DNA of 64,000 nucleotides from Dehalococcoidia bacterium (GCA_965262055.1 CBDHEI010000002.1:3156347-3220346); one strand, 5' to 3'; positions 4,587 through 63,829 are shown, counted from the stretch's first letter. The notes: a model not told the origin generated them from the sequence alone. Translations and numbers: made by a program.

Positions 4587-6326
4587 ATGCAAGAGACAGC
4601 GGAAAGCGACCTGTCGGAATTGAGGAAGCGCATTCGCCACTCGGCGTCCCACGTCATGGCGGATGTGGTAACCAGGATGTACCCGGGTACGCGTCTTGCG
4701 ATAGGCCCGCCTACGGATGACGGCTTCTACTACGACTTCGACACCCCGGAGCCCTTCTCCGACGACGACCTAGAGCGCATCGAAGAGCGCATGAGGGACG
4801 TCATAGCGCGGGACTTCAGTTTCGAGCTCCAGGAGTACCCGCGGGACGAGGCGTTGGAGATGCACTCCGGCGAGCCGATGAAGCTGGAGATAATCGGCGA
4901 GATCCCGGAAGGCGACTCGATCACCACCTACCGCCACGGCGAGTTCGAGGACCTGTGCGCCGGGCCGCACGTCGAGTCTACGGGCAAGATACCCGCCTTC
5001 AAGCTGCTGAGCGTGGCTGGGGCGTACTGGCGCGGCGACGAGCGGCGGCAGATGCTCCAGCGCGTGTACGGGACGGCGTTCGAGTCGCAGGAGGCGCTGG
5101 ACGAGCACCTGAGCCGGCTGGAGGAGGCGAGGAGACGCGATCATCGGCATCTCGGGCGACAGCTAGACTTATTCTCCATGCACGACGAGACCGGCCCAGG
5201 GCTGATCGTGTGGCACCCGAAGGGGGCGACAGTGCGTGGGATCGTGGAGGAGTTCTGGAAGGGGGAGCACCGCCGCCGGGGGTACGATCTCGTCTATACC
5301 CCGCACATAGGGCGTTCCACCCTCTGGCAGACCAGCGGCCACCTCGATTTCTTCAAGGAGAACATGTTCGCGGCGATGGAGATGGAAGGGTACGACTACT
5401 ACCTGAAGCCGATGAACTGCCCGTTCCACATCCTCTACTACAAGACGGACCTACGCAGCTACCGCAGCCTGCCGATGCGGGTAGGGGAGTTGGGCACGGT
5501 GTACCGGAACGAGCGCGCCGGTGTAGTCCATGGGCTTCTCCGCGTGAGGGGAATGACGCAGGACGACGCCCATATCTTCTGCCGTCCCGACCAAGTCGAG
5601 GACGAGATCAACGGGGTGCTCGACCTGACATTCTTCTTGATGAAGAGCTTCGGCTTCGACGAATACGACGTGATGCTGTCCACGCGCCCCGAGAAGGCTG
5701 TGGGCGAGGTAGAGCAGTGGGAGCTTGCCACCGCGTCGCTGCGCAATACGCTAGAAGCCCGGGGCATAGAGTATGGCGTGGACGAGGGCGGGGGAGCCTT
5801 CTACGGGCCGAAGATCGACATACATATCAGGGACGCCATCGGCCGGCTCTGGCAGTGCACGACCGTCCAGTTCGACTTCAACCTGCCCGAGCGGTTCGGG
5901 CTGACCTACATCGGCGAAGACGGGCGGGAGCACAGACCGTACATGGTCCACCGGGCGTTGCTGGGGTCGCTGGAGCGCTTCATGGGGGTGCTGATCGAGC
6001 ACTACAGCGGGGCCTTCCCCACGTGGCTGTCCCCCGTGCAGGCCGTGGTTATCCCGATTGCCGAGAGGCACTTGGAGTATGCGCGTCAGGTTCAGGAGCA
6101 GATCGCCGGCGCCGGCATCAGGGTGGAGACCGACGACCGCAATGAACGCATGAACGCGAAGATCAGGGACGCGCAACTCCAGAAGGTGCCCTACATGCTG
6201 GTCGTGGGCGACCGGGAGGCAGAGGCCGAAGCGGCAGCCGTTCGTCTGCGCTCAGGCGAGAACCTCGGGGCCGTGCCGGTCTCGCAGGTGATCGAAAGGA
6301 TATCCTCGGAGAACAGGCCCGCTTGA
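4587..6326 (+). CDS. thrS: threonine--tRNA ligase (short form without the N-terminal TGS domain)
   Basis: The editing-domain motif RHSASHVMADVV sits at residues ~17-28, followed by the class II core (NCPFHILYY, RVRGMTQDDAHIF) and a C-terminal anticodon-binding region. Confidence 0.9.
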   Translation: MQETAESDLSELRKRIRHSASHVMADVVTRMYPGTRLAIGPPTDDGFYYDFDTPEPFSDDDLERIEERMRDVIARDFSFELQEYPRDEALEMHSGEPMKLEIIGEIPEGDSITTYRHGEFEDLCAGPHVESTGKIPAFKLLSVAGAYWRGDERRQMLQRVYGTAFESQEALDEHLSRLEEARRRDHRHLGRQLDLFSMHDETGPGLIVWHPKGATVRGIVEEFWKGEHRRRGYDLVYTPHIGRSTLWQTSGHLDFFKENMFAAMEMEGYDYYLKPMNCPFHILYYKTDLRSYRSLPMRVGELGTVYRNERAGVVHGLLRVRGMTQDDAHIFCRPDQVEDEINGVLDLTFFLMKSFGFDEYDVMLSTRPEKAVGEVEQWELATASLRNTLEARGIEYGVDEGGGAFYGPKIDIHIRDAIGRLWQCTTVQFDFNLPERFGLTYIGEDGREHRPYMVHRALLGSLERFMGVLIEHYSGAFPTWLSPVQAVVIPIAERHLEYARQVQEQIAGAGIRVETDDRNERMNAKIRDAQLQKVPYMLVVGDREAEAEAAAVRLRSGENLGAVPVSQVIERISSENRPA

Positions 6327-6681
6327 TCTATCCTGCCCATCTTGTCTATGCATGTTCCATCATGCGGATCACGGTTGACGGCCGCGAACACGAGTGCTAG
6401 AGTTCTTCCTGTGGCACGGACGACTCCGGACGCGGTGACTGCGCTGCCGGGGTGGAGCCTCGGAGACCCTGCCCTGAGCCTGCAAAGATTGGGCGTGTCA
6501 CATTGGTGCCACATTCCGTCACATCCGTGTCGCGTTCGTGTACCCTGCTGTAATGTGGGCCATAGCTGAAGGGTGACAGAATGTTACAGGTTCAAAGGGG
6601 ACCCGCCGTATTTCGATGAGCAAGACCGGCGCGAGCGGCGGCCTTAGGTGCGATTCCAATGGCTGAATACCAAGGTTCTTG

Positions 6682-6711
6682 TTGCCCATGACTTGCGCGT
6701 TGTGCTATATT
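6682..6711 (+). promoter_or_regulatory. candidate sigma70-type promoter of infC-rpmI-rplT
   Basis: TTGCCC (6682-6687), an 18-nt spacer, then TGc-TATATT (-10 at 6706-6711). It lies ~38 nt upstream of the infC GTG. Confidence 0.45.
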
Positions 6712-6748
6712 CCTTGCTGTTCATTTTGGCCAGTATGGCCTCCGAGAG

Positions 6749-7321
6749 GTGGGAAGAATACCTAAAGACTATAGGATCAACGGACGGATCAGGGTTCAGC
6801 AGGTCCGGCTCATAGACGAAACGGGCAAGCAACTAGGTGTGATGCCGACCCGGACCGCCATGGACACTGCGCAGGCTCGCGGTCTGGATCTGGTTGAGGT
6901 TGCGCCCAACGCGGCGCCGCCGGTGTGCAGGCTTCTCGACTACGGCAAGTTCCGCTACGAGGTGACGCGCAAGGAGCGGGAGGCCCGCAAGGGGCAGAAG
7001 TCGAAGGGAGGAGCGCAGCAGCAGCGGGAGGTCCGCTTCAAGACGCGGATCGGCGACCACGACCGGGAGACGAAGACGAGACTGGTCAAGCGGCTTCTGG
7101 AGGAGGGGTCTAAGGTGCGGGTCTCCGTGTCGTTCAGGGCGCGCGAGATCACCCACCCCGAGTTCGGGATGGCCGTCTTGAGGAGGGTCGCCGAAGACCT
7201 GATCGAGGACGCAGAGATGGAGAAGACTCCCGGGTTCGAAGGTCGGTTCCTGACAATGGTCCTCGTGCCCACCGATAAGAAGGCCCCCGAGCAGAAGGAG
7301 CCGCAGAGTGCCAAAGCTTAA
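6749..7321 (+). CDS. infC: translation initiation factor IF-3
   Basis: YRINGRIRVQQVRLIDETGKQLGVM...LDLVEVAPNAAPPVCRLLDYGKFRYE. The start is the GTG at 6749, preceded by gagagg. Confidence 0.9.
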   Translation: MGRIPKDYRINGRIRVQQVRLIDETGKQLGVMPTRTAMDTAQARGLDLVEVAPNAAPPVCRLLDYGKFRYEVTRKEREARKGQKSKGGAQQQREVRFKTRIGDHDRETKTRLVKRLLEEGSKVRVSVSFRAREITHPEFGMAVLRRVAEDLIEDAEMEKTPGFEGRFLTMVLVPTDKKAPEQKEPQSAKA

Positions 7322-9867: not shown

Positions 9868-10560
9868 CTATCGCAGCAGGGCGCGGATGTCTTTGACGAG
9901 GGACGCTGGGTCGAAGGGCAGGGTGTGAAGTCCGCGTAGGAGCCCTTCCCGGTCGATGAGGTAGACCGGGGCAGAGTGGGTTATGGTGTAGTCCTCGGCT
10001 ATGCCCTCGGCGAGTTCGCTAACGCCGCCGCTCCCAGTGCCTGAGCTCCCACGGCGTGCCTCCTGCGATTCCGACGGACCGACCTCCGCCGGGTCGATGT
10101 AGTAAGCAGTCCACACGGGCTGCAGGTCGGCCTCCTCACCTACCAGGAACGACCACGTGTCGACCATGCGCCAGCGCTCCGAGTAGTCGTGCGCCTGCTG
10201 CACGGAATCGCGGTCGGGATCGACGCTCACGGCTATGATGCCGACCTCGCGGGCGTCGGAGCCCAGCATTTCGTGCGCGTCCCGAAGGTGGGTGGTCACC
10301 ACGGGGCATATGTCTGGGCAGGCTGTGTAGAGGAAGGTGAGGACAGCGACGCGGCCCCGGAAGGCTTCAAGGTCTACGGGGTCTCCGAACTGGTTGACCA
10401 GGCTGAACGGTGGCGCTGGTTTTGGGTCCTCGAAGATGGTGCCTTCGGAGGGCCCAGGCTGCGAGCAGGCGGACAGGAGCGCGGCGAGGGCCAGTGCGGT
10501 TAGAAGCAGCCAGCTTCTGGACTCCGGCCTACGCCGGAGTGACGAGATGGGGGGCAGCAC
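9868..10560 (-). CDS. SCO1/SenC family copper chaperone (thioredoxin fold)
   Basis: VLTFLYTACPDICPVVTTHL carries the CxxxC motif. The signal/lipobox LLLTALALAALLSAC is present. ORF 9868..10737 was trimmed to the GTG at 10560 to avoid overlapping the upstream small ORF. Confidence 0.75.
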   Translation of the reverse strand: MLPPISSLRRRPESRSWLLLTALALAALLSACSQPGPSEGTIFEDPKPAPPFSLVNQFGDPVDLEAFRGRVAVLTFLYTACPDICPVVTTHLRDAHEMLGSDAREVGIIAVSVDPDRDSVQQAHDYSERWRMVDTWSFLVGEEADLQPVWTAYYIDPAEVGPSESQEARRGSSGTGSGGVSELAEGIAEDYTITHSAPVYLIDREGLLRGLHTLPFDPASLVKDIRALLR

Positions 10561-10592
10561 GGCGCCGGGTCGCCCGGTGCCCAATGGCCGGT

Positions 10593-10802
10593 TCAGGACT
10601 GGCCGAATCTCCGCTCGAGCAGAGCCGCCGCGGTGGGGACGGACACCGTGATCGCCACGCCGAGCGCCACGACGGCCCACTCCTCGATTATCAGCTCGTT
10701 GATCACTGAGAAGACTACGCCGAGCCCCCCCGCGCACGTGATCACGACCAGCACCGCAAGTAGGGGGAAGAGCAACGCCCGTTTGAATCTAAGCTTTTCC
10801 AT
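10593..10802 (-). CDS. small two-helix membrane protein inside the cox operon
   Basis: The 69-aa product has two hydrophobic helices (ALLFPLLAVLVVITCAGGLGVVF and WAVVALGVAITVSVPTAAALL). An SD-like gaggac lies upstream of the ATG. Confidence 0.45.
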   Translation of the reverse strand: MEKLRFKRALLFPLLAVLVVITCAGGLGVVFSVINELIIEEWAVVALGVAITVSVPTAAALLERRFGQS

Positions 10803-10883
10803 AAGTTGTCCTCAACCTCGGACCGCTCTGGAGGCGGTCTCCTCTGATTACCTTGTTGTTGCGAGGGAGAAGGCGCGTAGTTG

Positions 10884-11738
10884 CTAGCTGTCCACCTCGT
10901 ACCCCGCCTCGGCAAGCTCCTTGCGCGTCTTCTCCTGCTCCCGGCTGTACCAGCGGAAGAAGGTCGCAATGATGAGCGCAAGGAGCAGAAGTCCGCCGCC
11001 TATCTTCATGATGATAGCACCTATCTGCTGGTCTGCGACCGCGTCCAGGGCGAGTATCCTCGGCGCGTTGGCGTACCACTCGTATAGCGGGCTCGTGGCG
11101 AATGTGATAGGCGCGAAGATGATGAGCTGCGCTATCGACAGGAGGAAGAGATAGAGCATCTGTAGAGGGTACGAAAGACGGGGCAGCTCCGGCATGATGC
11201 TGGTGATGGGCCACCACATCAGGACTGCGGCTGCCATGAACAGCACGTGTTCGAAGACGTGCACAGCATGGACCGTCACGCTCAGGTTGTACAGGGCTGG
11301 CATGTGCCACATCGAGAAGATGACGTTGAAGAGCAGGAACGCGACGACCGGATAGGTGGCTATCCTGGCGGCGATGAAGAGCGGGTCCGGCCTCAGGATG
11401 CGGCGTATGAGCCAGTCCGGCGTGCCCAGAATCAGCAGCGGTGGAGCGACCAGTGTCAACAGGACGTGCTGAAGCATGTGGGCGCTGAAGAGGAAGTCGT
11501 TGCTTATCCGGTGCAGGGGGGAGAGGAGCGCGAAGAATATGACTAGGACGCCCAGGGTAAAGGTGGCGGTCTGTCTGGGGTCGCTGGCCTCTGCAAGGCC
11601 GTAGCGCTCCCTGAGGGGGCCGACGCCTAGCAGGTACCCACCCTGCAGCAGGCCCAGGCCTATCAGCACATCGGGGTGCGAGTGCCACTCTGTCCAAATG
11701 GAGTCCACCACGCTGTCGGGACGCCCCTTTCTCCTCAA
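10884..11738 (-). CDS. ctaG: cytochrome c oxidase assembly factor CtaG (caa3_CtaG family)
   Basis: FFALLSPLHRISNDFLFSAHMLQHVLLTLVAPPLLILGTP is typical of the Bacillus-type CtaG membrane protein. Confidence 0.75.
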   Translation of the reverse strand: MRRKGRPDSVVDSIWTEWHSHPDVLIGLGLLQGGYLLGVGPLRERYGLAEASDPRQTATFTLGVLVIFFALLSPLHRISNDFLFSAHMLQHVLLTLVAPPLLILGTPDWLIRRILRPDPLFIAARIATYPVVAFLLFNVIFSMWHMPALYNLSVTVHAVHVFEHVLFMAAAVLMWWPITSIMPELPRLSYPLQMLYLFLLSIAQLIIFAPITFATSPLYEWYANAPRILALDAVADQQIGAIIMKIGGGLLLLALIIATFFRWYSREQEKTRKELAEAGYEVDS

Positions 11739-11786
11739 GCCCGGCGCAGGGCGGGACGGCTTCCCGGCCCCCCAATACGGGCCTTG

Positions 11787-12104
11787 CTACACGAAGAACT
11801 TGAACAGGGCGAGGACGGCCAGCACAATCGAGATGGCCAGCAACAGCCCGCCCAAGAAAAAGCCGGAGAACAGCCTGGCGTCGTAGCGCAGGTGCATGTA
11901 GAACATCGCGACCATCGCGAACTTGACGGTCGACAGGACCACCAGAATCGGGACGATGCCAATCCCCAGGTCCTCGATGTAGAAAATGCCCACCTCGGCG
12001 GCCGTAATGACCGAGAGGGTCATTGCGACCTTGAAGTAGGTCAACGGGGTCGGATGCCCTGTGTGTACGTTGCTTTCCGATTGGCTATGTGTCTGCTCGG
12101 CCAT
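11787..12104 (-). CDS. ctaF: cytochrome c oxidase subunit IV (prokaryotic CoxIV/CtaF family)
   Basis: The 105-aa product has three helices, and KFAMVAMFYMHLRYD is a typical motif. It lies directly downstream of subunit III. Confidence 0.75.
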   Translation of the reverse strand: MAEQTHSQSESNVHTGHPTPLTYFKVAMTLSVITAAEVGIFYIEDLGIGIVPILVVLSTVKFAMVAMFYMHLRYDARLFSGFFLGGLLLAISIVLAVLALFKFFV

Positions 12105-12113
12105 GCTCCTGCC

Positions 12114-12875
12114 CTATATGCCGGGGAATACCCCGAAGAGGTAGACGACTGTGAAGATGACGATCCACACGATGTCGACGAAATGCCAGTAGAGGGCCGC
12201 CAAGTCGACGTCCAGGTTGCGGGCCGCCGTCACGCCGCCTCGGGTGAACGAGAAGAAGAACAGCGACAGCAGCCAGATTACTCCCAGGGTGACGTGGGCG
12301 CCGTGGAAGCCGGTCAGGGTGAAGAAGGTCGTGCCGAACAGGTTGGTCCGGGGGGTCAGGCCGTGCTGTTCTTCGAACTCGTCGACACCCTCCACGCACC
12401 TGTCTACGAAAGTCTTCTCGTAGTCGGTCAACTCATCGATGGCGTGCTCGTTGGTACGCAGCTCAATGCAGTCCAGGTGCACCTCGTGGTTGGCGAAGTC
12501 CCTGAACTCGAATACCTGGAAGGCCAGGAAGGTCATGCCCATGATGGCGGTGGAGGCGATCCAGATGCGGAAGCCCTTGATGCTCCCGCGGGTGAGTGCG
12601 GAGTAGGCCAGCACCATGCTCATGCTGCTCATCAGCAGGACGAAGGTGCTGACCGACGTGGTCGGGATGCTGAAGACATCCTCGGGGAAGGGGCCGACCT
12701 TGCTCTTGCCGAAGTAGACGACGTAGGTGGCGATAAAGGACCCGAAGAACATGCAGTCCGAGCCCAGAAACGCCCACATAAGGAGCTTCCTGTGGTTCAG
12801 GCCGGTGGTTGTCTCTTCGTGCTCTCCGCCGTGCGCGGCGGCCTCTGCGTGTGCCAAGGGAGGCTCCTGCTCCAT
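12114..12875 (-). CDS. ctaE: cytochrome c oxidase subunit III
   Basis: ORF 12114..13229 was trimmed to the ATG at 12875 (MEQEPP...). That ATG overlaps the ctaD stop as TAATG. FTLTGFHGAHVTLGVIWL is a typical motif. Confidence 0.85.
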   Translation of the reverse strand: MEQEPPLAHAEAAAHGGEHEETTTGLNHRKLLMWAFLGSDCMFFGSFIATYVVYFGKSKVGPFPEDVFSIPTTSVSTFVLLMSSMSMVLAYSALTRGSIKGFRIWIASTAIMGMTFLAFQVFEFRDFANHEVHLDCIELRTNEHAIDELTDYEKTFVDRCVEGVDEFEEQHGLTPRTNLFGTTFFTLTGFHGAHVTLGVIWLLSLFFFSFTRGGVTAARNLDVDLAALYWHFVDIVWIVIFTVVYLFGVFPGI

Positions 12876-14731
12876 TAGTCGTGCCCTTCGTCCGGCTCGT
12901 TCACCGGCTCGAAGGACCATGCGTATATCGAGACGATCGTGATTGCGAGGCCGATGGCGCCGACGATTTTGCCCGCCCAGGTGGCGCTGTATACGAGGCC
13001 GTAGGCTCCTATCAGCAGGCCCGTGGACGCCAAGAGCGGCCAGTATGAGGGCTGCGGAAGGTGTATGCCGTGGCCGTTGTCCTCGGAGGCGCCTGCCACC
13101 GGAACGGTGCTGACCCGCTGACGCTTCTGCATCCAGAACGGGTCTATTCCGTGCACGACGGGGATCTGCTCGAAGTTGTACTCCGGGGGCGGGGAGGGGA
13201 TGGACCACTCCAGGGTCCGTCCGTCCCAAGGATCCGGACCGGCCAGCTCGCCCTTCCTGGCGCTGCGCACCATGTTGATGATGAGCACCAGAATGCCCGC
13301 GGCCAGGACGGCGGAGCCCAGAGAGGAGATGAGGTTCCAGAAGTCCCAGCCCATATCGGAGTCAAATGAGTGGATGCGGCGGGGCATGCCGTCCAGTCCG
13401 ACGAAGTGCATCGGGAAGAAGGTGATGTTCATGCCTATGAACACCAGCCAGAAGTTGAGCTTGCCCATCGCCTCGTTCATGAGGCGTCCGGTGATCTTGG
13501 GGAACCAGTAGTAGGCGCCCGCGGCGATAGCCATGATGCTGCCGCCGAAGAGCACGTAGTGGATGTGGGCGACGATGAAGTAGGTGTCCTGCTGCTGGGC
13601 GTCCGAGGCGGCGGAGGAGTGCATGACGCCGCTCAGGCCGCCGATGATAAACAGGAAGATGAAGCCGATCGCGAAGAGCATCGGGGTCCTCAAGTCTATG
13701 GACCCCTTCCACATCGTGCCTATCCAGTTAAATATCTTGACGCCAGTGGGCACCGCAATGGCCATCGTGCTCAGGGCGAAAACCGAGTTGGCCACAGGGC
13801 CGAGCCCCACGGTGAACATGTGGTGGCTCCAGACCATCCAGCCCATGAAGCCGATGATGACGCCGGACAGGACGACGACGGGATAGCCGAAGAGCGGCTT
13901 GCGGGAGAAGGTTGGGATGATCTCCGAGACTATTCCCATGGCAGGCAGGATCAGGATGTAGACCTCCGGGTGGCCGAAGATCCAGAAGAGGTGCTGCCAG
14001 AGCAGGGGATTGGCGCCGGCTCCGGTGCTAAAGAAGTTCATCCCGAAGAAGCGGTCGAACATCAACTCGATGAGCGCCACCGTTATTACCGGGAAGGCCA
14101 GCACCAGCAGGAAAGAAGTGACGAGGGTCATCCACGTAAAGAGAGGCATCCGCATCAGCGACATGCCCGGGGCGCGCATGTTGACTATCGTCACGATGAA
14201 GTTGAAGGCCGCGGCCAGCGAAGCGATACCCAGCACCTGCAGGCTGACGGCCCAGAAGTCGATGCCGTGGCCTGGGTTGAAGTCGCTGCCCGTGATCGGA
14301 GCGTACCCGAACCAGCCCGCGTTGGGCGCTCCGCCCAAGAACCAGCTCAGCTTGAGGAGGATCGCGCCTGCCAGGAAGGTCCAGTAGCTGAAGGCGTTCA
14401 GACGTGGGAAGGCCACGTCCCTGGCGCCTATCTGCAGCGGTATGACGAAGTTGAAGAACGCTGCTCCTAGGGGCATGACGCCCAGGAAGATCATCGTCGT
14501 GGCGTGCATGGTAAAGAGCTGGTTGAAGACCTCCGGGCTGACGAGGTCCTGCTCCGGCCGGGCGAGCTGGACGCGCATGTACAGCGCCTCCAGGCCTCCT
14601 GTAATGAACAGGATGAACGCCGACACACCGTAGAGGATGCCGATCTTCTTGTGGTCTATGGTAGTCAGCCATGCCATCACCCCCGTGGGGTGGGCCGGCC
14701 TCTTTGGCAGCGGTATAGCGAGCGTAGTCAT
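12875..14731 (-). CDS. ctaD: cytochrome c oxidase subunit I
   Basis: The 618-aa product contains WQHLFWIFGHPEVYILILPAMG and HHMFTVG, which are haem-copper oxidase signatures. Confidence 0.95.
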   Translation of the reverse strand: MTTLAIPLPKRPAHPTGVMAWLTTIDHKKIGILYGVSAFILFITGGLEALYMRVQLARPEQDLVSPEVFNQLFTMHATTMIFLGVMPLGAAFFNFVIPLQIGARDVAFPRLNAFSYWTFLAGAILLKLSWFLGGAPNAGWFGYAPITGSDFNPGHGIDFWAVSLQVLGIASLAAAFNFIVTIVNMRAPGMSLMRMPLFTWMTLVTSFLLVLAFPVITVALIELMFDRFFGMNFFSTGAGANPLLWQHLFWIFGHPEVYILILPAMGIVSEIIPTFSRKPLFGYPVVVLSGVIIGFMGWMVWSHHMFTVGLGPVANSVFALSTMAIAVPTGVKIFNWIGTMWKGSIDLRTPMLFAIGFIFLFIIGGLSGVMHSSAASDAQQQDTYFIVAHIHYVLFGGSIMAIAAGAYYWFPKITGRLMNEAMGKLNFWLVFIGMNITFFPMHFVGLDGMPRRIHSFDSDMGWDFWNLISSLGSAVLAAGILVLIINMVRSARKGELAGPDPWDGRTLEWSIPSPPPEYNFEQIPVVHGIDPFWMQKRQRVSTVPVAGASEDNGHGIHLPQPSYWPLLASTGLLIGAYGLVYSATWAGKIVGAIGLAITIVSIYAWSFEPVNEPDEGHD

Positions 14732-14776
14732 CTTCTGGCTACCTCATTCATTCCTGCTAGTACGTCCAAACGTGGT

Positions 14777-14908
14777 GGAGGAATCCTTCCAGACCTTCCT
14801 TCAGATCCCTTCCTGGACAGGAAGGGTAGAGATTTTGTATGTGAGGGATACCCTCAGACTCCCGGCAAAGGGGCTCCGCCCCTCTGCACACGCCGTATTT
14901 TAGCAGCC
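14777..14908 (-). repeat. copy A of a ~130-145 nt hairpin-rich intercistronic repeat (between ctaC and ctaD)
   Basis: The core gtgagggataccctcagactcccggcaaaggggctccgcccctctgcaca is near-identical to 22132-22180 and 24331-24380. It contains three local hairpins. Confidence 0.8.
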
Positions 14909-14933
14909 TACTAAGATTCGGGCCGCGGCCCGT

Positions 14934-16001
14934 CTACTTTAGCCCCCGCAGATAGGCTACGAGCGCGGAGATATCCGCTTCTGTCAGTTCTCTGGCGGGG
15001 TCGTTGTAGACCTCTGCGTCCCTGGCCATAAGGTTGCCCGGCTTGACGTCGGCGGGATCCTCCAACCACTTGCGCAGATTGGCTTGCGTATTCTCCATAA
15101 TACCGGCGGCGATGTGGCCCCTGCTGGCGACGTGCGTAAGGTTGGGCCCTTGCTCACCCCGGGCTCTCGTTGAGCCCGCCACGGTGTGGCAGGACCAGCA
15201 CCGGGCGTCGCCTTCGAAGAGGTTCTTACCAGCGATTGCGAGCGGGTCGGTGGGGACTGCCGCGTCCTGCGCCTGCGCGGTGAGCCAGGTATCGAACTCC
15301 TCCTGCGGATGGACGATTACCCGGAACCTCATGTTGGCGTGGGCGACTCCGCAGAACTCGGCGCACTGTCCGTAGTACTCGCCGGGCTTCTCGGCCAGGA
15401 TCCACATCGTGTTCGGATGGTTCGGCACGAGGTCGACCTTGCCGGCGATCTTCGGGATCCAGAAGCTGTGCAGCACGTCCTTGGAGTCCAGGTTGATGTT
15501 GATGACCTCGTCGACGGGTATATGGAGCTCGTTCGAGACTACCGTCGTGGCGTCGGAGCCGTCGGGATGGGGATAGTTGAACTCCCACCACCACTGGTGG
15601 CCGACGACATCGATGGTAAGGGAGTCGGGATCCGGGGAGTTAGCGTTGTCGAAGATGGTGGTGACCGTGGGCACCGCGACGACGGCTAGGATGAGCGCCG
15701 GGGCTACTGTCCAGCCTATCTCGAGCGGGGTGTTCCCGTGGGTCTGCTCCGGGTCCGGGTCGCCCGGCTTCCGCCTGAACTTGACCGCCGCGTAGATGAG
15801 GATGCCCTCTACGACTATGAATACGAAGACCGCGGTCCACAGGATCCAGTAGAAGAGGGTTAGCTGCGACCGGGCCACCGGGCCCGTAGTGTCGAAGGTC
15901 GACTGGTTGTGCTCAGGAGTACAGCCTACGGCCAGCAGGACCAACAGCACGGCCAGCACGACGATTGCCAGCCTAGACGAGTAGCGGTCTATCTTCGACA
16001 T
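14934..16001 (-). CDS. ctaC: cytochrome c oxidase subunit II with fused C-terminal cytochrome c domain (caa3-type)
   Basis: The CuA site is HSFWIP...CAEFCGVAHANM. The C-terminal haem-c motif is CWSCH. Confidence 0.9.
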   Translation of the reverse strand: MSKIDRYSSRLAIVVLAVLLVLLAVGCTPEHNQSTFDTTGPVARSQLTLFYWILWTAVFVFIVVEGILIYAAVKFRRKPGDPDPEQTHGNTPLEIGWTVAPALILAVVAVPTVTTIFDNANSPDPDSLTIDVVGHQWWWEFNYPHPDGSDATTVVSNELHIPVDEVININLDSKDVLHSFWIPKIAGKVDLVPNHPNTMWILAEKPGEYYGQCAEFCGVAHANMRFRVIVHPQEEFDTWLTAQAQDAAVPTDPLAIAGKNLFEGDARCWSCHTVAGSTRARGEQGPNLTHVASRGHIAAGIMENTQANLRKWLEDPADVKPGNLMARDAEVYNDPARELTEADISALVAYLRGLK

Positions 16002-17148: not shown

Positions 17149-17954
17149 GTGAACCGTCTACGCCTTGCCTGGGCCGGTGTAGCGGCTGCTGTGCTGATAG
17201 GGGTGGCGGTGCTGATTGCCGTCGCGCTGAACGTCGGGCGGACGAGCCCGGAGCGAGATGCGGCTGGTCCGGCAGTCTCGGGCGACGCGACGTCTCCACA
17301 GACAGAAGCTTCTTCGGAAGCCGCGCGGGGCGAGACGCAGGAACCGTCGACAGCAGCGACGGACACGGAGAGTGCGGACGCTTCGGGTACGGTCTCCCCC
17401 GGAGACGACGAGGAGGTCGTGCTAACGGACCCGCTGGGAGGGGTCGGGATGGACCCCTCTGTGGCGGAGGCGTTCCCGGACTTTGCGCGGGTACTGGGTA
17501 AGGACGACATTCTCCCGATCTACGACCCGGTACTGGTCCGCGCCGAGGAGGCGGGCCTGCAGGACGATGACCACGTGATGGGGCTGGCGATAGACGGGGA
17601 GGCCAGGGCCTACCCTGTGAGGGAGCTCTTCTCGCGGGAGATGGTCAACGATGAGGTTGCGGGCGTGCCAGTGCTGGTCACGTGGTGACCGATCTGCAAC
17701 ACCGGTCTCGTGCACGACCGGCGGATCGAAGGCAAGGCCCACGTGTTCGGGAACTTCGGGAAGCTGTACCTGAAGGCGATGACGTGGTGGGACCACGAGA
17801 CCGGCAGCGTCTGGTCGCAACCCTTGGGGCAGGCGCTCAAGGGTCCCTACAAAGGAACACGGCTGGAGATGATCCCGGTGGCGGTACTGCCCTGGAAGTC
17901 ATGGAGGAACGAGCACCCCGACACCTTGGTGTTGAAGGTGGACAACCCTTTCGA
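17149..17954 (+). pseudogene. DUF3179-domain protein, 5' part (split by IS; in-frame TGA at the first Cys of the CxxC motif)
   Basis: An N-terminal TM helix is followed by GLAIDGEARAYPVRELFSREMVNDEVAGVPVLVTW-TGA-PICNTGLVHDRRIEGKAHVFGNFGKLY...SVWSQPLGQALKGPYKG. The family motif as I recall it is VTYCPLC. The reading frame continues after the IS at 19645. Confidence 0.75.
17690..17728 (+). other. SECIS-like stem-loop immediately 3' of the in-frame TGA
   Basis: The lower stem is CGATC (17690-94) paired with GATCG (17724-28). The upper stem is CCGGTC (17702-07) paired with GACCGG (17716-21). The 8-nt apical loop TCGTGCAC has GU at positions 25-26 counted from the U of UGA. Confidence 0.3.
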
Positions 17955-19637
17955 ACCTGTCTCACAAAGGGTTGTTGGTGGTGATGGGGAGCACTGCATT
18001 GGTTGGTCGGATCCGCTGGGGGCCGGGTTGGCGTGTCATGGCAGTCCGTGTGCGGGGAGGATGGCGGTCTGGCGCTCCTGGCATCCCCAGATTCGGGCCG
18101 AAGTTGCCGTCCAAGAGGTACGTCCGTGACGCCACATGTCCGCCCCGGCCCGCCAGATGCGCCAGAGGGTGCGCAGGTTGAAGGCCGTGGCCAGCAGCGT
18201 CCATTCGGCCGCGACATTGGCGATGCCGCGCAGCAGGAACCTGCGGCCTGCCTGCTGGTCTTTGATGATCCCGAAGACCGGCTCGATCAGCCCTTGCCTG
18301 CGCTCATAGGACCGGCTCGCCTCCTCGGTCGACATCCACTCACGGTGGACACGCAGCGCAGCATCGTGAGGCCCTATCTCCAGTGCGCGACCATAACGAG
18401 CGTCCTTCGTACAGGTCCCGAAGGCAGGACACGCCCGGCAGACGGCGCCGGAGGCCCGGTACCGCCGCATCGGCACCCCATGATTGCGCTTGATGCGTAT
18501 GAAGCGCAACGCCTGACCCTGGGGGCATCTATAGCTGTCGCTGCTCTCGTCGTAGGTGAATCGGTCCTTGTGGTACGGACGCCGCAGCGCACGGCGCTGG
18601 GACTCTGGCATCGCCACCCGCTGGCCCCTGCTGGCGCACTCCTCCAGCGCCTGCCCCGAATGGTAGCCCGCATCGGCCAACGTCATGTCCGCCCTGGCGC
18701 CCGTATTGTCCTCGGCCTTGTCCAGCATCGGAGTCAACTGGCCGTGGTCGTCCGGTTCGTCCACCACCTCGACCGCCGTGATCAGCATGCCTGCACGCTG
18801 TCCGTCGGCAGTCCGTGCGGGCGAGGCCATCGCCTGCGCGTTGTAGCCGGGCATGACGCCCTGGCGTGTCTTCATCAGACGAGCCTCTCGGTCGGTCAGG
18901 TTGATGCGCCGTCCCTCCTCGTTCGAAAGATCGTCCATCGCCTGGCGCACCTGCTCTCTCAGGACCCTGTTGTCGTACAACTCCTGCGGCAACTGGGCGG
19001 TTGGAGCATCCTCTCCCGATTCGTTCTGGGACTCCAGGTCGCTTATCGCACGCTCAAGCCGCTCCAAGAGCCGCCGCAGTCCCTCCGCATCGTATGTCCT
19101 GGCCTTCGATGCGTTGGCTCCAACCTTCGTCCCGTCCACCGCCTGCAACGCCAGGTCCACCAACTCCATCTTCACCGCCATCCGAACCGTACGCTTGAAC
19201 AGCCTCCTCATCGCCTGGCGGTGGCTCTTGTAGAACCTCCAGAGTGTGTTGTGGTCCGGATATTGCACGCACGTCAACCACAGGTACGGTATCTGGTCCC
19301 GGCAGGCCGCCTCCAACTTGCGGCACGAGCGCACTCCGGTCATGAAGCCGTACAGCCACACGCTCAACAGCGCTCGAGGATGGTACGAAGGAGGCCCAAG
19401 ATCACCTCCGTCTATTTCCACCCCAAGCTCCGCCCAGTCCTCTCGGTCGAGTGCGTCCACCACCTCGGCCACGAACCGCGAAGGGTGCTCGGCAGGGATC
19501 AGGTCGCCCAGGCTCGGAGGCATCAGCCACATCTGTTCTCGGTCCATCGCTCGCAGCGGCATCCATCTCTCCATCGCGGCCAGGATGGCCACAACTATAT
19601 TCTTCCATACCCCACTGCACGACTTATGAGACAGGCT
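17955..19637 (-). mobile_element. IS1182-family insertion sequence (~1.68 kb)
   Basis: The imperfect terminal inverted repeats are acCTGTCTCAcaa at the left end and ttaTGAGACAGgct at the right end. It is flanked by the 7-bp direct repeat CTTTCGA (17948-54 and 19638-44). Removing it restores the DUF3179 reading frame. End positions are +/-2 nt. Confidence 0.8.
18036..19592 (-). CDS. IS1182-family (IS5-like DDE) transposase
   Basis: The 518-aa product has LMPPSLGDLIPAEHPSRFVAEVVDALD (DUF772-like N-terminus), a DDE core, and RCPQGQ...CRACPAFGTCT near the C-terminus. Confidence 0.85.
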   Translation of the reverse strand: MAILAAMERWMPLRAMDREQMWLMPPSLGDLIPAEHPSRFVAEVVDALDREDWAELGVEIDGGDLGPPSYHPRALLSVWLYGFMTGVRSCRKLEAACRDQIPYLWLTCVQYPDHNTLWRFYKSHRQAMRRLFKRTVRMAVKMELVDLALQAVDGTKVGANASKARTYDAEGLRRLLERLERAISDLESQNESGEDAPTAQLPQELYDNRVLREQVRQAMDDLSNEEGRRINLTDREARLMKTRQGVMPGYNAQAMASPARTADGQRAGMLITAVEVVDEPDDHGQLTPMLDKAEDNTGARADMTLADAGYHSGQALEECASRGQRVAMPESQRRALRRPYHKDRFTYDESSDSYRCPQGQALRFIRIKRNHGVPMRRYRASGAVCRACPAFGTCTKDARYGRALEIGPHDAALRVHREWMSTEEASRSYERRQGLIEPVFGIIKDQQAGRRFLLRGIANVAAEWTLLATAFNLRTLWRIWRAGADMWRHGRTSWTATSARIWGCQERQTAILPAHGLP

Positions 19638-19644
19638 CTTTCGA

Positions 19645-20035
19645 GTTGACCTACGATCCGTTCGAGTTCACCCAGGACATCTACGTGCTTGGGGTCTCGC
19701 TGGGTGAGGACGCCAAAGCGTACCCCTGGCCGGCGGTCAGCGCCGAGGTAGCGGTGAACGACCGGCTTGGGGAAGTGCCACTGCTGGTATACGCCAACTC
19801 CGAAACGAGGGCGGCACACATCTACGTGAGGCGCGCCGGGGGCAGGGAGCTGGAGTTCGTCTGGCGCGATGGGGCGCTCACCGACGTGGAGACGGGCTCG
19901 ACCTGGGACCCCGGAACCGGGAGCGCGGTCAAGGGAGAGCTTCGCGGCGAGGTGTTGAAGCAGGTGCCGTACGCGACTGCCTTCGACTGGGCGTGGGCCG
20001 ACTTCTACCCCGACACGGCGGTATACGGCCAGTAG
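19645..20035 (+). pseudogene. DUF3179-domain protein, 3' part
   Basis: LTYDPFEFTQDIYVLGVSLGEDAKAYPW...TGSTWDPGTGSAVKGELRGEVLKQVPYATAFDWAWADFYPDTAVYGQ is the typical C-terminal half of DUF3179. Confidence 0.75.
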
Positions 20036-40948: not shown

Positions 40949-42627
40949 ATGGACCATTCCATGGCCGTCTACGTAACCGATCTGAGCGTGTGCACGCCGG
41001 CGGCGGCCTTGTCCGCGGGGCGGCGGAAGTACCACTGGCAGACTATCCCGTACGAGACGGAGGAGTTCTCGGGGGTGATGCTGTCCACCGGACCGGAGAC
41101 GGAGGCCCCGGAGGTCACGCTGCCGTTGGGCGTGACCGGATGGCATGCGGTCTTCATCGGACTGTGGGGGACGGAAAGCCAAGACGTGTGGGGCGATGGC
41201 ACGAACCAGGACACGGTCAAGGTGCGCCTCAGCGACAACCCCTGCTTCACGCGCATAGTGCGCGAGGACCTGGACTACTTCACCTTCGACGAGCGCTTCT
41301 GGATCTACGCGGACCTGACGGGCAGGGACATCGTCTTCGGGCAGCAGATGAGCGGCTGGCCGGCGCGCGCATATCCCGCCTACGTGAAGGTCGTGCCTCT
41401 GTCGGACGCCGAGGTAGAGACCATCCAGAGCGAACGGCAGCGCGAGAATACGAAAACGCTGATCGGCATCGCCTGTGAAGGGGACGACTACCTGGGAAAC
41501 CTGCGGCCAACGACCCGCGAGGAGATATGGGAGTTGGTCGAGCCGTACCGGGATACGGACTTCAGGCAGCTCTTCTGGTGCGTCGGCAGCGGCGGCGACA
41601 TTTGCACATACCCGACGCGTATCGGCGCGTTGCAAAACGTAGAGAGGGAGGACCGGTCGCGGCCCTTCGACCGCGTAAAGGGCGAGGCGCTGAGCATCCT
41701 GCTGGGGGGAAGGGCATCGACCCGCTGGAGGAGGCCGTCAGCCATGCGCACAAGCTGGGGCTGGAGATGAATGCCCAGCTACGCATGGGGGCCTTCCAGG
41801 CGGCGCCGCCTCTTGAGGGGACGTACACCGGCCCTGTGTGGGGCCGTCACCCCGAGTGGCACTGCATCGACATAGACGGCCGCGAGATCGCCCGCATGAG
41901 CTACGCCTTCGAGGGCATGCAGGACTACGTGCTGTCGTTGCTGCTGGAGCTGGCGGGATACGACGTGGACGGCGTATGCATGACCTGGGTCAGGGGCGCG
42001 CCCTACGTGCTGTACGAGAAGCCCTTGGTGGAGGGCTTCAAGGCGAAGACGGGGAAGGACCCGCGCGACCTGCCGGAGGACAATGAGGAGTACTTGCGCT
42101 ATCGGGCTGGATTCATGACGGCTTTCGCTCGAAAGGTGCGCCGCGCCATGGACGAGAGGGGACGGCAGCGCGGGCGCAAGGTCGAGCTGCTCACGCACGT
42201 GCTCAACGACGAGGACGCCAACCTGTTCTACGGGTTCGACGTAGAGACGTGGGTGCGCGAGGGGCTCATCGACACACTGATCCCTTACCCCTGGCGGGAG
42301 AAAGACATCGACGTGGCGTACTTTGCAGGGATCACCGGCGGCACTTCGGTGTCGCTACGCCCGGAGATCATGCCTCGAAGCATGCCGCCGGAGCAGTTCA
42401 GGCGGCACGCCCTGGACTTTTATGACAAGGGCGCCGAGGGATTCTGCTTTTGGGACACGGAGGGGCGGCACCTGCGCAGGGCGGAGTGGAGCATGATGCA
42501 GAGGCTGGGCCACAAGGATGATCTGGCCGGCTGGGACGACGGAGAAGGGGAGTTTTTCCGTTCAATTAAGCTTCGCAGCCTGGGCGGATACGTGATGGAC
42601 AAGTACCCGCCGCTGTGGGCCTATTGA
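40949..42627 (+). pseudogene. paralogue 3 of the ~560-aa family, frameshifted in a G6 run (41704-41709)
   Basis: Frame A (40949..) reads ...GEALSILLGG. Frame B continues KGIDPLEEAVSHAHKLG...GGYVMDKYPPLWAY. Joined, these align with ...HQILAGKGIDPMKTVIDYCHAMG of paralogue 1. Confidence 0.7.
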
Positions 42628-46520: not shown

Positions 46521-46612
46521 GGAGGGATCGCATAGTGGTCTAGTGCGGCCGCCTGCTAAGCGGTTAGGGGGAGAAATCCCTCTCATGGGTTCGAATCCCA
46601 TTCCCTCCGCCA
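46521..46612 (+). tRNA. tRNA-Ser (anticodon GCU), long variable arm, CCA encoded
   Basis: The acceptor stem is GGAGGGA/TCCCTCC. The anticodon stem-loop is gccgc-CTGCTAA-gcggt. A long variable arm and the T-loop ggttcgaatcc are present. The 3' end is gCCA. Confidence 0.9.
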
Positions 46613-61288: not shown

Positions 61289-62121
61289 ATGGTACGAAGA
61301 CTGGGAGTATATGGAGCCGTTGCGGCGATGGTGGCGCTGGTTATGGCGCTGGCGGCCTGCGGCAGCAGGGAAGTGATTAAGGAAGTGCCCGTGGAGGTGG
61401 TGGTCGAGAGGGAAGTGGTCAAAGAGGTACAGGTGCCGGGGGAGACGATAGTAGTAGAGAAAGAGGTGGTAAGGGAGGTACAGGTGCCGGGCGAGACGGT
61501 GGTGGTGGAGAAAGAGGTAGTAAAGGAAGTGCCGGTAGAGGTGGTGGTCGAGAGGGAGGTTGTGAAGGTGGTGGAGGTTCCGGTTGAGGTGGTGGTCGAG
61601 AAAGAGGTGGTCAGAGAGGTGGAGAAGGTGGTCGTGGTGGAAGTGGTGAAGGAGGTCGAAGTAAGCACGCCTTCCACTTCCCCTGCACCGACAACCAAGT
61701 CCGGTGGGACGCCGCCTGCGACAACCTTCCAGGATTACCAGCGGGAGAGGTTCGTATCTGCGGCGCAGGACGCGGTATCGACCTTCAGCCTCGATACCGA
61801 CCGCACGTCGTACTATCTGGCCCTCAACTGGGCGCGCACTGGCTACAAAGTGGAGCCTGACTCCGTCAGGGCAGAGGAGTGGATCAACGCCTTCAACTAT
61901 GGCTACGAAGCACCGCTTCACAGCGACAGCTTCGCCATATCGACCGACGTGGTCAGCCACCCCCTGGACGGCGGGCTGCACCTCGCGCGCATCGCCTTCC
62001 AGGCGCCCAAGATGAGCTCCGACAGCACCCCGGTCAACGTGACCCTAGTGCTCGACGCCTCCGGCTCGATGCGCACGGGCAACCGGGTGGACATCGCCAG
62101 GGAGGCCGCCGAGAGCATAAG
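61289..62121 (+). pseudogene. vWA-domain lipoprotein, 5' part (split by IS1380-family element)
   Basis: The lipobox is VALVMALAACGS. A Val/Glu-rich repeat linker follows, then FQDYQRERFVSAAQDAVSTFSLDTDRTSY...EEWINAFNY...VNVTLVLDASGSM, the start of the vWA MIDAS motif DxSxS. Confidence 0.75.
61370..61660 (+). repeat. in-frame tandem repeats encoding a (K/R)EVV(K/R)EV.VP.E..VVE linker
   Basis: REVIKEVPVEVVVE REVVKEVQVPGETIVVE KEVVREVQVPGETVVVE KEVVKEVPVEVVVE REVVKVVEVPVEVVVE KEVVREVEKVVVVEVVKEVEV. Confidence 0.8.
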
Positions 62122-63824
62122 CCCGAATCCACCGAAGGACACCTATGGACGGCGTGAGGACAGCGGCAGGGTGGGTGAGGGAGCTACAGGGGAGATGGCT
62201 GGGCTCATTGGGGTAGATTGGAGGTCGGCGAACGGTCTTCAGTCGCCGCATAGGGCCCCTATGGCCCTCTGCGGGAGCTGCGATGCGCGGGATGGCGAGA
62301 GAATACGCAGCAGGGAACTCTCGCGGACCGGGGTGGCACGAGTTTGCAGGGAAGTTGGGTCAGTTGCAGGCTGGCAGTCAGGCGGGGAGTGGAATGGCTC
62401 GCAGCCGGGCCATGGCGCGAGTGAACTGGGTTTCCCAAGGCCAATGCTGGGGAAGATGCAGGGTAAGGCGGCGCGCCGAGCGGGTGATCCGTCCCACCAG
62501 AGCGAAGACCCGCCGCCTGAGGGTCTTGGTGGTCACGGTCCGTTCGGCCAGACCGATGCGCGCTGTCCAGCGGGCGAGGTTGTGTGCCATCACCTGCACC
62601 GCCAGCCAGGCGCCGTTGGCGGCGAAGCGCCCCGAGGGGAGATGGTTGAGTCCGACGCCGTGTTTCAGGTCTCGAATGGCGTTCTCGATCTCGGCGTGGC
62701 GGCGATGATCGGCCTCCAGTTCCAGGGTTTCCCCGTCCCGGTCGGTGATGAAGCCGTGATAGCTGTAGGTGGCGAAGAGGGCCAACTGGGAACCGGGCGT
62801 GGGCTTCACCCGCCGGACGATGAGCCGCACCGGCGCGGCGTCGGGTTCACTCTGGAAGGGGGTATAGGTGGTCTCGGCCACATCGGCGGCGCCGTCCATC
62901 CAGTAGGGAATCGGCGTCCAGTCCTGCTCGGGGATCGCCTCAATCAACTCCCGCAGGCCTTTGTGCTGGCGGATGGTGATGGAGAAGCGGACACCCATCT
63001 CGCGGCAGACGGCGACGAGAGCGTGGGCGTAGAAGCCGCTGTCGGCGCGCACCGTGAGTTGGCCGCTGGCCCCACCGTAGCGCACCCGCCCCACCGTTTC
63101 ACGCAGGAAGTGGGCAGCGCCGCGAGCGGTGTTGGCACGGCCCTCGCGCAGCCGGGACATCAGCACATCGCCGGTTCCGGCGGCGATGGCCAGCAGTGGG
63201 TGATAGCCCCGCGCGCCGGTGTAGTTGTGGTGTCGCGCCCCTTCTTTGTCCAGTCCATAGGTCTCGCAGATGGTGGAGTCCAGGTCGATGGTCAGGGGCG
63301 AGTCGCCGGGTCCGGCCCCAGCGGCCCATGCGCGTGCCAGCAACTGGCGGCTCACCCGGTCGAGTTGACGGACATGCCCCCACCGGAAACTGCGCAGGAA
63401 GGTGCCCAGGGTGGATGGCGCCTTGACCACGCAGCCGAGAACACCGACCGTCCCACCAGCACGCAGCGCATCGGCGTCGTCGATGAAGTCGCCGCCCGCC
63501 AGCGCGGAAGCGACCAGCGTCAGCAGTTTGTCCCCCGTGTTCGCCCGCCCCGGTGCGCAGCCGAGGTCGAGGTGATGGTCGGCGAGTTCCCGCAGGCCCA
63601 GGTGCTGTGCAAGGGTGGCCGGCAGGAGCAGGCCGGCATTGGCCACCAGGCGGTGGTCGTCAAAGACGACGCCGATACGGTCGGGATTGTTCTGTGGCAG
63701 CATCTACTGGGTGCTCCTTGTTTCCGGGCGGTTTTCTGTTTCAAAACCATTCTCCCAGATTCAGAGGAGCACCCTCTGGCTTCTTCAAGGACTGTCCCCA
63801 AAGTCGTCTTTCGGTGGATTCGGG
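62122..63824 (-). mobile_element. IS1380-family insertion sequence (1703 bp)
   Basis: The terminal inverted repeats begin with a perfect 15-mer, CCCGAATCCACCGAA, and show further similarity to ~30 nt. It is flanked by the 5-bp direct repeat ATAAG (62117-21 and 63825-29). Excision restores ...AAESIRRSLRTGDRIAVVHF. Confidence 0.85.
62378..63703 (-). CDS. IS1380-family DDE transposase
   Basis: The 441-aa product contains VVFDDHRLVANAGLLLPATLAQHLGL...IDLDSTICETYG...GYHPLLA...RADSGFY...EADHRRHAEIENAIRDLK. Confidence 0.85.
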   Translation of the reverse strand: MLPQNNPDRIGVVFDDHRLVANAGLLLPATLAQHLGLRELADHHLDLGCAPGRANTGDKLLTLVASALAGGDFIDDADALRAGGTVGVLGCVVKAPSTLGTFLRSFRWGHVRQLDRVSRQLLARAWAAGAGPGDSPLTIDLDSTICETYGLDKEGARHHNYTGARGYHPLLAIAAGTGDVLMSRLREGRANTARGAAHFLRETVGRVRYGGASGQLTVRADSGFYAHALVAVCREMGVRFSITIRQHKGLRELIEAIPEQDWTPIPYWMDGAADVAETTYTPFQSEPDAAPVRLIVRRVKPTPGSQLALFATYSYHGFITDRDGETLELEADHRRHAEIENAIRDLKHGVGLNHLPSGRFAANGAWLAVQVMAHNLARWTARIGLAERTVTTKTLRRRVFALVGRITRSARRLTLHLPQHWPWETQFTRAMARLRAIPLPA

Positions 63825-63829
63825 ATAAG

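Follow-up and report, generated by a model that had tools for sequence, protein, structure and literature searches.

Proteins with a DUF3179 domain (PF11376) have already been counted among the bacterial selenoproteins. The family is tabulated, with the motif UxxC/T and with example accessions, in two published reviews (PMC9312934, PMC13188914), and both tables credit it to Zhang and Gladyshev 2007 (PMC1976440). The name DUF3179 is absent from that paper, where the family is probably the one listed as 'OS_HP1', as judged by elimination against its Table 2. A protein search also returned several NCBI records titled 'DUF3179 domain-containing (seleno)protein', one of them from a Chloroflexota MAG. 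About half of the best 120 matches in this search are C-terminal fragments of 188-226 aa, which have probably been truncated in the same manner, by annotation that splits the gene at the UGA.

The signals that accompany such UGA codons in bacteria are described by a consensus model, in which the SECIS element has an apical loop of 3-9 nt with a G in one of its first two positions, an upper stem of 4-16 bp, a spacing of 16-37 nt between UGA and loop, and a minimum free energy of -7.5 kcal/mol or lower (PMC13188914). Some of the accepted elements depart from this model, and bacterial SECIS elements are usually said to share little sequence similarity (PMC13188914). Within the Chloroflexi, the presence of both tRNA(Sec) (PMC5389517) and selenoproteins (PMC1794560) has been reported.

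The locus described here lies in a stretch of 64,000 nucleotides from a Dehalococcoidia bacterium, referred to below as the window. It holds a DUF3179 gene with an in-frame TGA, and shares with the described family the Pfam domain, the position of Sec as the first residue of U-x-x-C, the coexistence of Cys homologues and a stem-loop after the UGA. Nothing essential separates it from the family as tabulated in the reviews, apart from the disruption of this copy by an insertion sequence. The gene therefore adds one more member to a family already described and does not define a new selenoprotein family, and the novelty implied by the initial annotation, which did not know DUF3179 as a selenoprotein family, does not survive the two published tables and the '(seleno)protein' name in use at NCBI. 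Since family and UxxC motif are already in selenoprotein catalogues, the locus adds little in that respect. It offers instead a clean comparative demonstration, in which a recoding hairpin can be recognised by a sharp local drop in synonymous variation, and a hairpin that breaks one rule of the search model used for finding bacterial selenoproteins. The best explanation, to which a probability of about 0.88 is assigned, is that this is a Chloroflexota DUF3179 selenoprotein gene, whose UGA is recoded to Sec by means of a stem-loop inside the reading frame and which has since been inactivated by the insertion.

The interrupted gene and its intact allele

The translated frame that starts at 17149 reads ...EVAGVPVLVTW-TGA-PICNTGLVHDRRIEGKAHVFGNFGKLY... 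and is resumed, in the same frame, behind the insertion sequence (Table 1). When the stop is replaced and the insertion taken out, a product of 398 residues results, which scores 220.6 bits against PF11376 (cutoff 27; E-value 3.9e-65). None of the NCBIfam models matched this reconstructed protein, which indicates that the '(seleno)protein' name of NCBI is not derived from any NCBIfam HMM that was searched. In the alignment with full-length homologues, the TGA column coincides with the first Cys of a nearly invariant VTWCPxCxT motif, which, together with the Pfam match, bears out the original proposal of a UxxC in place of the family CxxC. The motif had been given as VTYCPLC; in this clade the residue given as Y is mostly W and only sometimes Y or F. 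The sequence after the TGA had also been described as family-like and in frame, and it is: once the insertion and one copy of the target duplication are taken out, the frame stays open to the TAG, and its dN/dS is low (see below). The N-terminal hydrophobic helix of the protein is likely a membrane anchor or a signal.

Table 1. Features of the DUF3179 locus in window coordinates, with what each rests on
Feature	Position	Strand	Description and support
DUF3179 gene, 5' part	17149..17954	+	Codons 1-268 and first two bases of codon 269; N-terminal hydrophobic helix, acidic Ser/Thr-rich linker, first half of DUF3179 domain with U-P-I-C; translation, Pfam PF11376; same as L001:10001-10806
In-frame TGA, codon 180	17686..17688	+	Aligned with first Cys of CxxC in Cys homologues
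SECIS-type stem-loop	17690..17728	+	Folding; stem completeness and codon entropy across Sec forms
Lower stem	17690-17696 with 17722-17728		CGAUCUG/CGGAUCG; nt 5-11 with 37-43
Upper stem	17702-17707 with 17716-17721		CCGGUC/GACCGG, 6 bp
Apical loop	17708-17715		UCGUGCAC, 8 nt; G25 U26 (from U of UGA) at 17710-17711
Target-site duplication, left copy	17948..17954		CTTTCGA, 7 bp; blastn segments of L001 and window overlap by these 7 nt
Insertion sequence	17955..19637	-	1683 bp; absent from otherwise identical L001 allele; interrupts codon 269
Terminal inverted repeats of the insertion sequence			Imperfect: ACCTGTCTCAcAAG / AGCCTGTCTCAtAAG
Transposase ORF	18036..19592	-	518 aa; Pfam DDE_Tnp_1_6 4.4e-22, DUF772 1.4e-16, DDE_Tnp_1 5.6e-11
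Target-site duplication, right copy	19638..19644		CTTTCGA
DUF3179 gene, 3' part	19645..20035	+	Last base of codon 269 to codon 398, and TAG stop at 20033-20035

That the gene is split by an insertion sequence, as the initial annotation had stated, is confirmed by the element itself, by the duplication of its target and by an empty site. The empty site is found on L001, a 114-kb contig of an ENA metagenome assembly that is independent of the assembly of the window, and which carries the same region without the element (blastn identity of 99.74% upstream and 99.99% downstream). After removal of the element and one copy of the duplication, the window gene is identical to L001:10001-11197 over 1197/1197 nt, TGA included. 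The existence of an identical allele that lacks the insertion and has the TGA means that the TGA is the older of the two, and that the interrupted allele is the exception. The element, which is single copy within the window, resembles the IS1182/IS5 group in its single DDE transposase with DUF772 and DDE_Tnp_1_6 domains, its short imperfect inverted repeats and its short target duplication; it is presumably IS1182/IS5-like, a placement made from the Pfam domain architecture and from what characterises the known insertion sequence families.

Records of the exact N-terminal fragment exist for the L001 contig and for a contig of 3,604,665 bp, and the latter also has a 129-aa product that corresponds to the remnant behind the insertion. 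Clustering at 90% identity groups 23 N-terminal fragments, nearly all of 179 aa, and 33 C-terminal fragments, mostly of 211 aa, from many assemblies; some members of the C-terminal cluster are located on contigs of 1-4 Mb. The inactivation of the gene in this genome is recent, and the same population still contains the intact allele. The interrupted copy of the window probably makes no functional protein now. For annotation, the 179-aa and 211-aa ORFs of the intact allele are to be merged into one selenoprotein of 398 residues, and the copy in this genome is to be flagged as disrupted by an insertion sequence.

Conservation and selection around the TGA codon

The family alignment was used to scan GTDB, one genome being taken per species. 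This yielded 285 confirmed matches, of which the best 80 loci were analysed. All of these 80 belong to Chloroflexota MAGs, from the Dehalococcoidia (including SAR202) and the Anaerolineae. They contain 85 gene copies, among which the aligned codon is TGA in 82 and TGC or TGT in 3, and the frame continues past this codon in every one of the 85. In two loci (L071 and L080) a Cys form and a Sec form are found as tandem paralogues, the classic Cys/Sec pair, and another one (L012) has two Sec paralogues. Together with five Cys forms that were fetched separately, the three from the scan make up the 8 Cys forms used in the comparisons below. With DUF3179 nearly fixed for Sec in Dehalococcoidia and Anaerolineae, the gene can serve as a handy indicator that these uncultured lineages decode Sec.

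The closest orthologues of the window allele are those of L002 and L006, at approximately 84% amino-acid identity. Over the 218 codons after the TGA, dN/dS is 0.137 against L002 (dS 0.64) and 0.202 against L006 (dS 0.52), and a third pairwise comparison of the same codons gives 0.130. These values are no higher than those of the 85 codons preceding the TGA, and the 218 codons downstream are thus under purifying selection. Between the TGA and the next codon that could serve as a start lie seven residues, which are conserved in the protein while their codons vary: P, C, T and G are invariant, the Pro being encoded by CCG, CCC, CCT or CCA and the Cys by TGC or TGT. Such invariance of residues under variation of codons implies that the stretch between the TGA and the next start is translated. 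On the same contig, TGA is the ordinary stop of 8 of the 38 other called genes, which means that the codon has not been reassigned throughout the genome and that its recoding is specific to the site.

The stem-loop behind the TGA

The stem-loop that had been described after the TGA does fold as proposed, with a longer lower stem (CGAUCUG/CGGAUCG) and with G25 and U26 in the 8-nt loop. It begins 2 nt past the UGA, within the coding sequence (codons P-I-C-N-T-G-L-V-H-D-R-R-I), and its two stems are separated by an asymmetric internal loop of 5 nt on the 5' side. The minimum free energy is -21.2 kcal/mol over 55 nt, which is modestly unusual with respect to shuffled sequences (z = -2.0; 5 of 200 shuffles as stable). 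The fold of one sequence alone is weak evidence, and it is the comparative data which put the hairpin beyond chance.

The clearest of these data come from synonymous codon usage. Codon entropy was computed at the conserved four- and six-fold degenerate codons among 105 aligned codons in 79 Sec forms. It ranges from 1.35 to 2.36 bits generally, and the sole exceptions, at 0.40-1.14 bits, are +1, +5, +6, +7, +8 and +11, which are the codons that make up the hairpin. Gly +6 is encoded by GGT in 89% of the forms, against 1-17% at the other conserved Gly positions, and Arg +11 is CGG in 94%, while the neighboring Arg +12 is CGG in 29% and uses five other codons. The same codons separate the Sec forms from the Cys forms: GGT at codon +6 is present in 63/71 unique Sec forms and in 0/8 Cys forms, CGG at codon +11 in 67/71 and 2/8, respectively, and the complete upper stem in 61/71 and 0/8. 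None of the 8 Cys forms uses GGT for its Gly or Ala, and most of them encode Arg +11 by CGC. The initial annotation had proposed to look in orthologues for TGA/Cys pairs at this codon and for a conserved hairpin, and both are there. The hairpin is therefore kept by selection beyond the coding constraint. The folding energy over 45 nt is alike in Sec and Cys forms (-13.2 and -13.25 kcal/mol), and the signal is that of a specific hairpin and not of general stability.

Across 77 distinct Sec forms, pairing is maintained in 94.6% of cells in the upper stem and in 75.9% in the lower stem. Covariation over the hairpin in these 77 forms is not significant (score of 0.078 against a shuffled mean of 0.072, with 79 of 500 shuffles as high), because the upper stem hardly varies, and RNAalifold returned no consensus structure for the same set. 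Repeated double changes are found at pair 9-39 only (CG 31, UA 12, GC 3). Some individual variants rebuild the hairpin: that of L052, CGGGCAUG-GUU-CAUGCCCG, restores pairing through an Asp-to-Ala change, and those of L040 and L034 likewise do so with compensating changes, the variants including D-to-A or D-to-V replacements. An Rfam search of 17550-17850 at a permissive threshold gave chance matches only, with no matching family.

With regard to the consensus model, the window hairpin remains within the limits for loop (8 nt), stem (6 bp), spacing (19 nt, positions 4-22) and energy (-10.6 kcal/mol for the upper hairpin alone, -18.8 kcal/mol with the lower stem). However, in the minimum-energy fold the conserved G occupies position 3 of the loop (G-U at 3-4) and not position 1 or 2. 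The rule on the G is satisfied only if the invariant U23-A29 is paired and C30 is bulged, giving the loop CGUGC, at a cost of 3.2 kcal/mol (-7.4 against -10.6 kcal/mol). Under a strict test with contiguous stems, 15 of the 77 Sec forms pass (loop UGGUUCAY or GUN) and 62 fail. Given this displaced G, and given that some accepted SECIS elements are themselves off the model, the structure is named here a SECIS-type element.

The hairpin had also been likened to the SECIS of E. coli fdhF. The resemblance holds for the general geometry and is approximate only: like the E. coli fdhF/fdnG type and the bSECISearch model, the element is a hairpin inside the ORF, 3' of the UGA, with a GC-rich upper stem of 6 bp, and like the E. 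coli elements it has a small apical loop with a G-U some 25 nt from the UGA; it does not extend to the conserved G, which sits at position 3 of the 8-nt loop, unlike in the consensus. A further difference from the sequence-diverse bacterial SECIS elements is the near-invariance of ACCGGUCUCGUGCAYGACCGG over two classes of Chloroflexota.

Sec decoding, competing readings and predicted function

The UGA would be decoded as Sec, and U-P-I-C would replace the C-P-x-C of the Cys homologues. By analogy with characterised bacterial systems, the stem-loop would direct the recoding by tethering SelB·GTP·Sec-tRNA(Sec) to the ribosome while the UGA is in the A site. Within the window and the flanks seen (about 85 kb in all), no selA, selB, selD or tRNA-Sec gene is found. 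Over the window, the sole tRNA detected by ARAGORN is a tRNA-Ser(GCT) at 46521, which is also the only hit of Rfam at the gathering threshold, and Pfam gave no SelA, SelB or SelD domain in ten large window ORFs or in the Pfam lists of L001 and of a further locus, L082. Look-ups for exact matches to proteins from the remainder of the window gave none on record. The ORF at 1203-2444 resembled SelA by eye and was rejected, as Pfam gave only a weak match to Aminotran_5. The window was also scanned for other selenoprotein genes, taken as a TGA with coding-like GC3 on both sides, and no other gene with an in-frame TGA was found; the only two other candidates, at 2442 (a PLP enzyme with an HpcH-type aldolase behind it) and at 42625 (a GHL10-like protein with RsfS behind it), each turned out to be a pair of unremarkable neighboring genes in the same frame. 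In related genomes, a second UGA gene, with the motif EFGSFT-U-PYC, directly follows the Sec form in 10 Anaerolineae loci (9 contigs), and its hairpin is canonical (GGAUGGC-GGC-GCCAUCC). Clustering of the gene neighborhoods revealed no neighbor common to most loci, and this second Sec gene, in its 10 loci, is the only recurrent one. The genome of the window would itself be expected to decode Sec.

The caveat attached to the initial annotation was that the TGA might be a product of decay, a TGC/TGT-to-TGA nonsense mutation in a gene split by the insertion. In a wider form, this alternative also allows for an erroneous base at 17688 from sequencing and takes the hairpin as a chance fold of GC-rich coding sequence. 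The disruption of the gene in this genome, the z of only -2.0 for the single-sequence fold and the nearly equal overall stability of the GC-rich Cys forms would all agree with such an origin. It is nonetheless refuted by the independent allele without insertion, which keeps the TGA in an otherwise identical gene, and by the TGA in 82/85 copies from about 80 species (the best 80 of 285 loci); a downstream dN/dS of 0.14-0.20 and a synonymous constraint confined to the hairpin point the same way, and a search for further inactivating mutations turned up no other frameshift or stop, which leaves decay with a practically negligible probability. Two polypeptides could alternatively be made, and perhaps assemble, if the UGA terminated translation and the downstream part were produced separately from the GTG at 17710 or from a later ATG. 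The automatic calling of two ORFs (179 aa and 211 aa) in every assembly and the position of the GTG, 8 codons past the TGA, are in line with this division, but the stop falls exactly on the conserved Cys of the family, and the seven codons between TGA and GTG show the protein conservation with synonymous variation that marks them as translated. Moreover, the C-terminal fragment called in many homologues starts far downstream, at MNAMTWW, and fragment starts that vary in this way leave no conserved restart site. Added to the constraint on the hairpin and to the published assignment of the family as a selenoprotein, this makes a split gene extremely unlikely.

Two other readings keep the TGA as a genuine feature of the family and differ in what becomes of it. 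Near-cognate decoding might place one of the standard amino acids, Cys or Trp, at the UGA without any Sec machinery, the hairpin acting only as a stimulator of read-through. The absence of Sec genes from the window and the flanks seen would fit, as would the one constraint of the bacterial SECIS model that the hairpin breaks; yet UGA in place of Cys in a CxxC motif is the signature of Sec, 15 of the 77 Sec forms of the hairpin satisfy the strict model, the DUF3179 gene is adjoined in related genomes by another UGA gene whose SECIS is canonical, and Chloroflexi are known to have tRNA(Sec) (PMC5389517) and selenoproteins (PMC1794560), so that this kind of read-through is judged very improbable. 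The gene could also be a relic, a true ancestral selenoprotein gene in a lineage that has lost Sec decoding, where the insertion is part of an ongoing loss. The insertion does show that this strain, at least, can do without the gene, and the lack of sel genes in about 85 kb is compatible with such a loss, but the intact allele is without other lesion and is the common form (33 members in the cluster of C-terminal fragments, mostly of 211 aa), and the comparison with the closest sister species still shows purifying selection. There is accordingly very little room for a relic, and a functional selenoprotein gene, interrupted in this genome by the insertion, remains by far the preferred reading.

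The product of the intact selenoprotein gene is predicted to be membrane-anchored or exported and to consist of two similar beta-rich modules. A sequence search of the PDB gave no homologue, and the structural prediction comes from AlphaFold as applied to the Cys homologue P0002. The model is confident (pLDDT 88.5, pTM 0.85) and shows an N-terminal helix, a disordered linker and the two modules. Foldseek found no significant global match for this model. It did return local alignments of approximately 90-100 residues to Rieske-type ferredoxins and to the Rieske domains of dioxygenases, with probabilities of 0.8-0.99, E-values of 0.1-0.3 and a TM-score of about 0.5 on the target. The C-P-x-C loop of the model recalls the Cys-containing metal-binding loops of the Rieske-type [2Fe-2S] fold, but the CxH...CxxH ligand set of Rieske proteins is absent from the DUF3179 protein, and the modelled likeness may be taken as a lead, not as membership.

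A far-reaching extension of these observations would see the hairpin as a distinct, Chloroflexota-wide class of SECIS with lineage-specific recognition by SelB, matching the unusual 8/4 tRNA(Sec) reported for the phylum, and serving a membrane-anchored, extracytoplasmic, Rieske-like two-module selenoprotein in metal handling; as a whole, this scenario is considered unlikely. With respect to the U/C-x-x-C site itself, thiol/selenol redox chemistry or metal binding can be envisaged, and the available leads hint at a redox or metal-handling role outside the cytoplasm. Two of the Cys-form genes directly follow FUR-ZnuA-ABC-3 genes, and one adjoins a gene for an HMA-domain protein.

Paralogues and a second UGA gene

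DUF3179 paralogues, spaced approximately 1.1-1.2 kb apart, are found in tandem in L071, L080, and L012, homologous loci from other assemblies, where they occur as Sec forms (with a TGA codon at the first Cys of the CxxC motif) or as Cys forms. In 10 loci, a second gene with an in-frame TGA lies directly 3' of the DUF3179 Sec gene and on the same strand. This second gene carries the motif EFGSFT-U-PYCGMAAP, and its product is, in appearance, thioredoxin-fold or deiodinase-like. It also holds a conserved hairpin, GGAUGGC-GGC-GCCAUCC, which agrees with the bacterial SECIS model, that is, the published consensus constraints on the recoding hairpin 3' of the UGA. A second UGA gene of this EFGSFT-U-PYC type is absent from the window.

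Coordinates of DUF3179 tandem pairs, second UGA genes, and the oxidase cluster
Feature	Position	Remark
DUF3179 tandem pair	L071:3268 and 4473	one Cys form, one Sec form
DUF3179 tandem pair	L080:3208 and 4429	one Cys form, one Sec form
DUF3179 tandem pair	L012:3190 and 4323	both Sec forms
Second UGA gene	L029:4229, L035:5084, L060:1194, L062:4052, L064:3685	same strand as DUF3179 Sec gene
Second UGA gene	L074:2166, L077:3235, L079:4076	same strand as DUF3179 Sec gene
Second UGA gene	L032:4049 and L042:4049 (one contig)	same strand as DUF3179 Sec gene
caa3-type cytochrome c oxidase cluster	window 9868-16001	minus strand, just upstream of DUF3179 gene

In-frame TGA codons in the window

Should recoding of the UGA persist in the IS-bearing allele, reading would continue past codon 269 and 58 codons into the IS, yielding a truncated chimeric product. 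The predicted read-on (window 17689-18129) is ...VDNPFEPVSQRVVGGDGEHC..., with its stop at TGA 18127-18129. Two other TGA codons followed by same-frame coding were rejected as selenoprotein sites, being ordinary gene junctions: 2442-2444, between a PLP enzyme and an HpcH-type aldolase, and 42625-42627, between a GHL10-like protein and RsfS.

Gene neighbourhoods and genome features

The neighbours of Cys forms may hint that the role of DUF3179 is related to metals. In two genomes (L086:50-4041, L087:1-3942), FUR-ZnuA-ABC-3 (metal uptake) genes are directly followed by the Cys-form gene, and in a third (L083:2714-4005 and 5622-6935) the Cys-form gene adjoins a small gene for an HMA-domain protein, and both a radical-SAM gene and a further DUF3179 fragment lie in the vicinity.

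In the window, DUF2203 and GYD genes stand between the DUF3179 gene and the oxidase cluster, which comprises COX2 with a cytochrome c domain, COX1, COX3, COX4_pro, and Caa3_CtaG; a gene for a SCO1/SenC-like protein lies in the same minus-strand interval. Compared with the near-identical contig L082, an indel or rearrangement is found inside a run of repeated VWA-domain genes (window 61396-63825 versus L082:16577-21070), and the remainder of the 16.8 kb shows 99.5% identity. The genes called on L082 and on L001, another near-identical contig, end most often in TAG (25/39), followed by TGA (9) and TAA (5); together these genes correspond to roughly 7.1-29.4 kb and 44.9-64 kb of the window. The G+C content of the genome is 63.9%.
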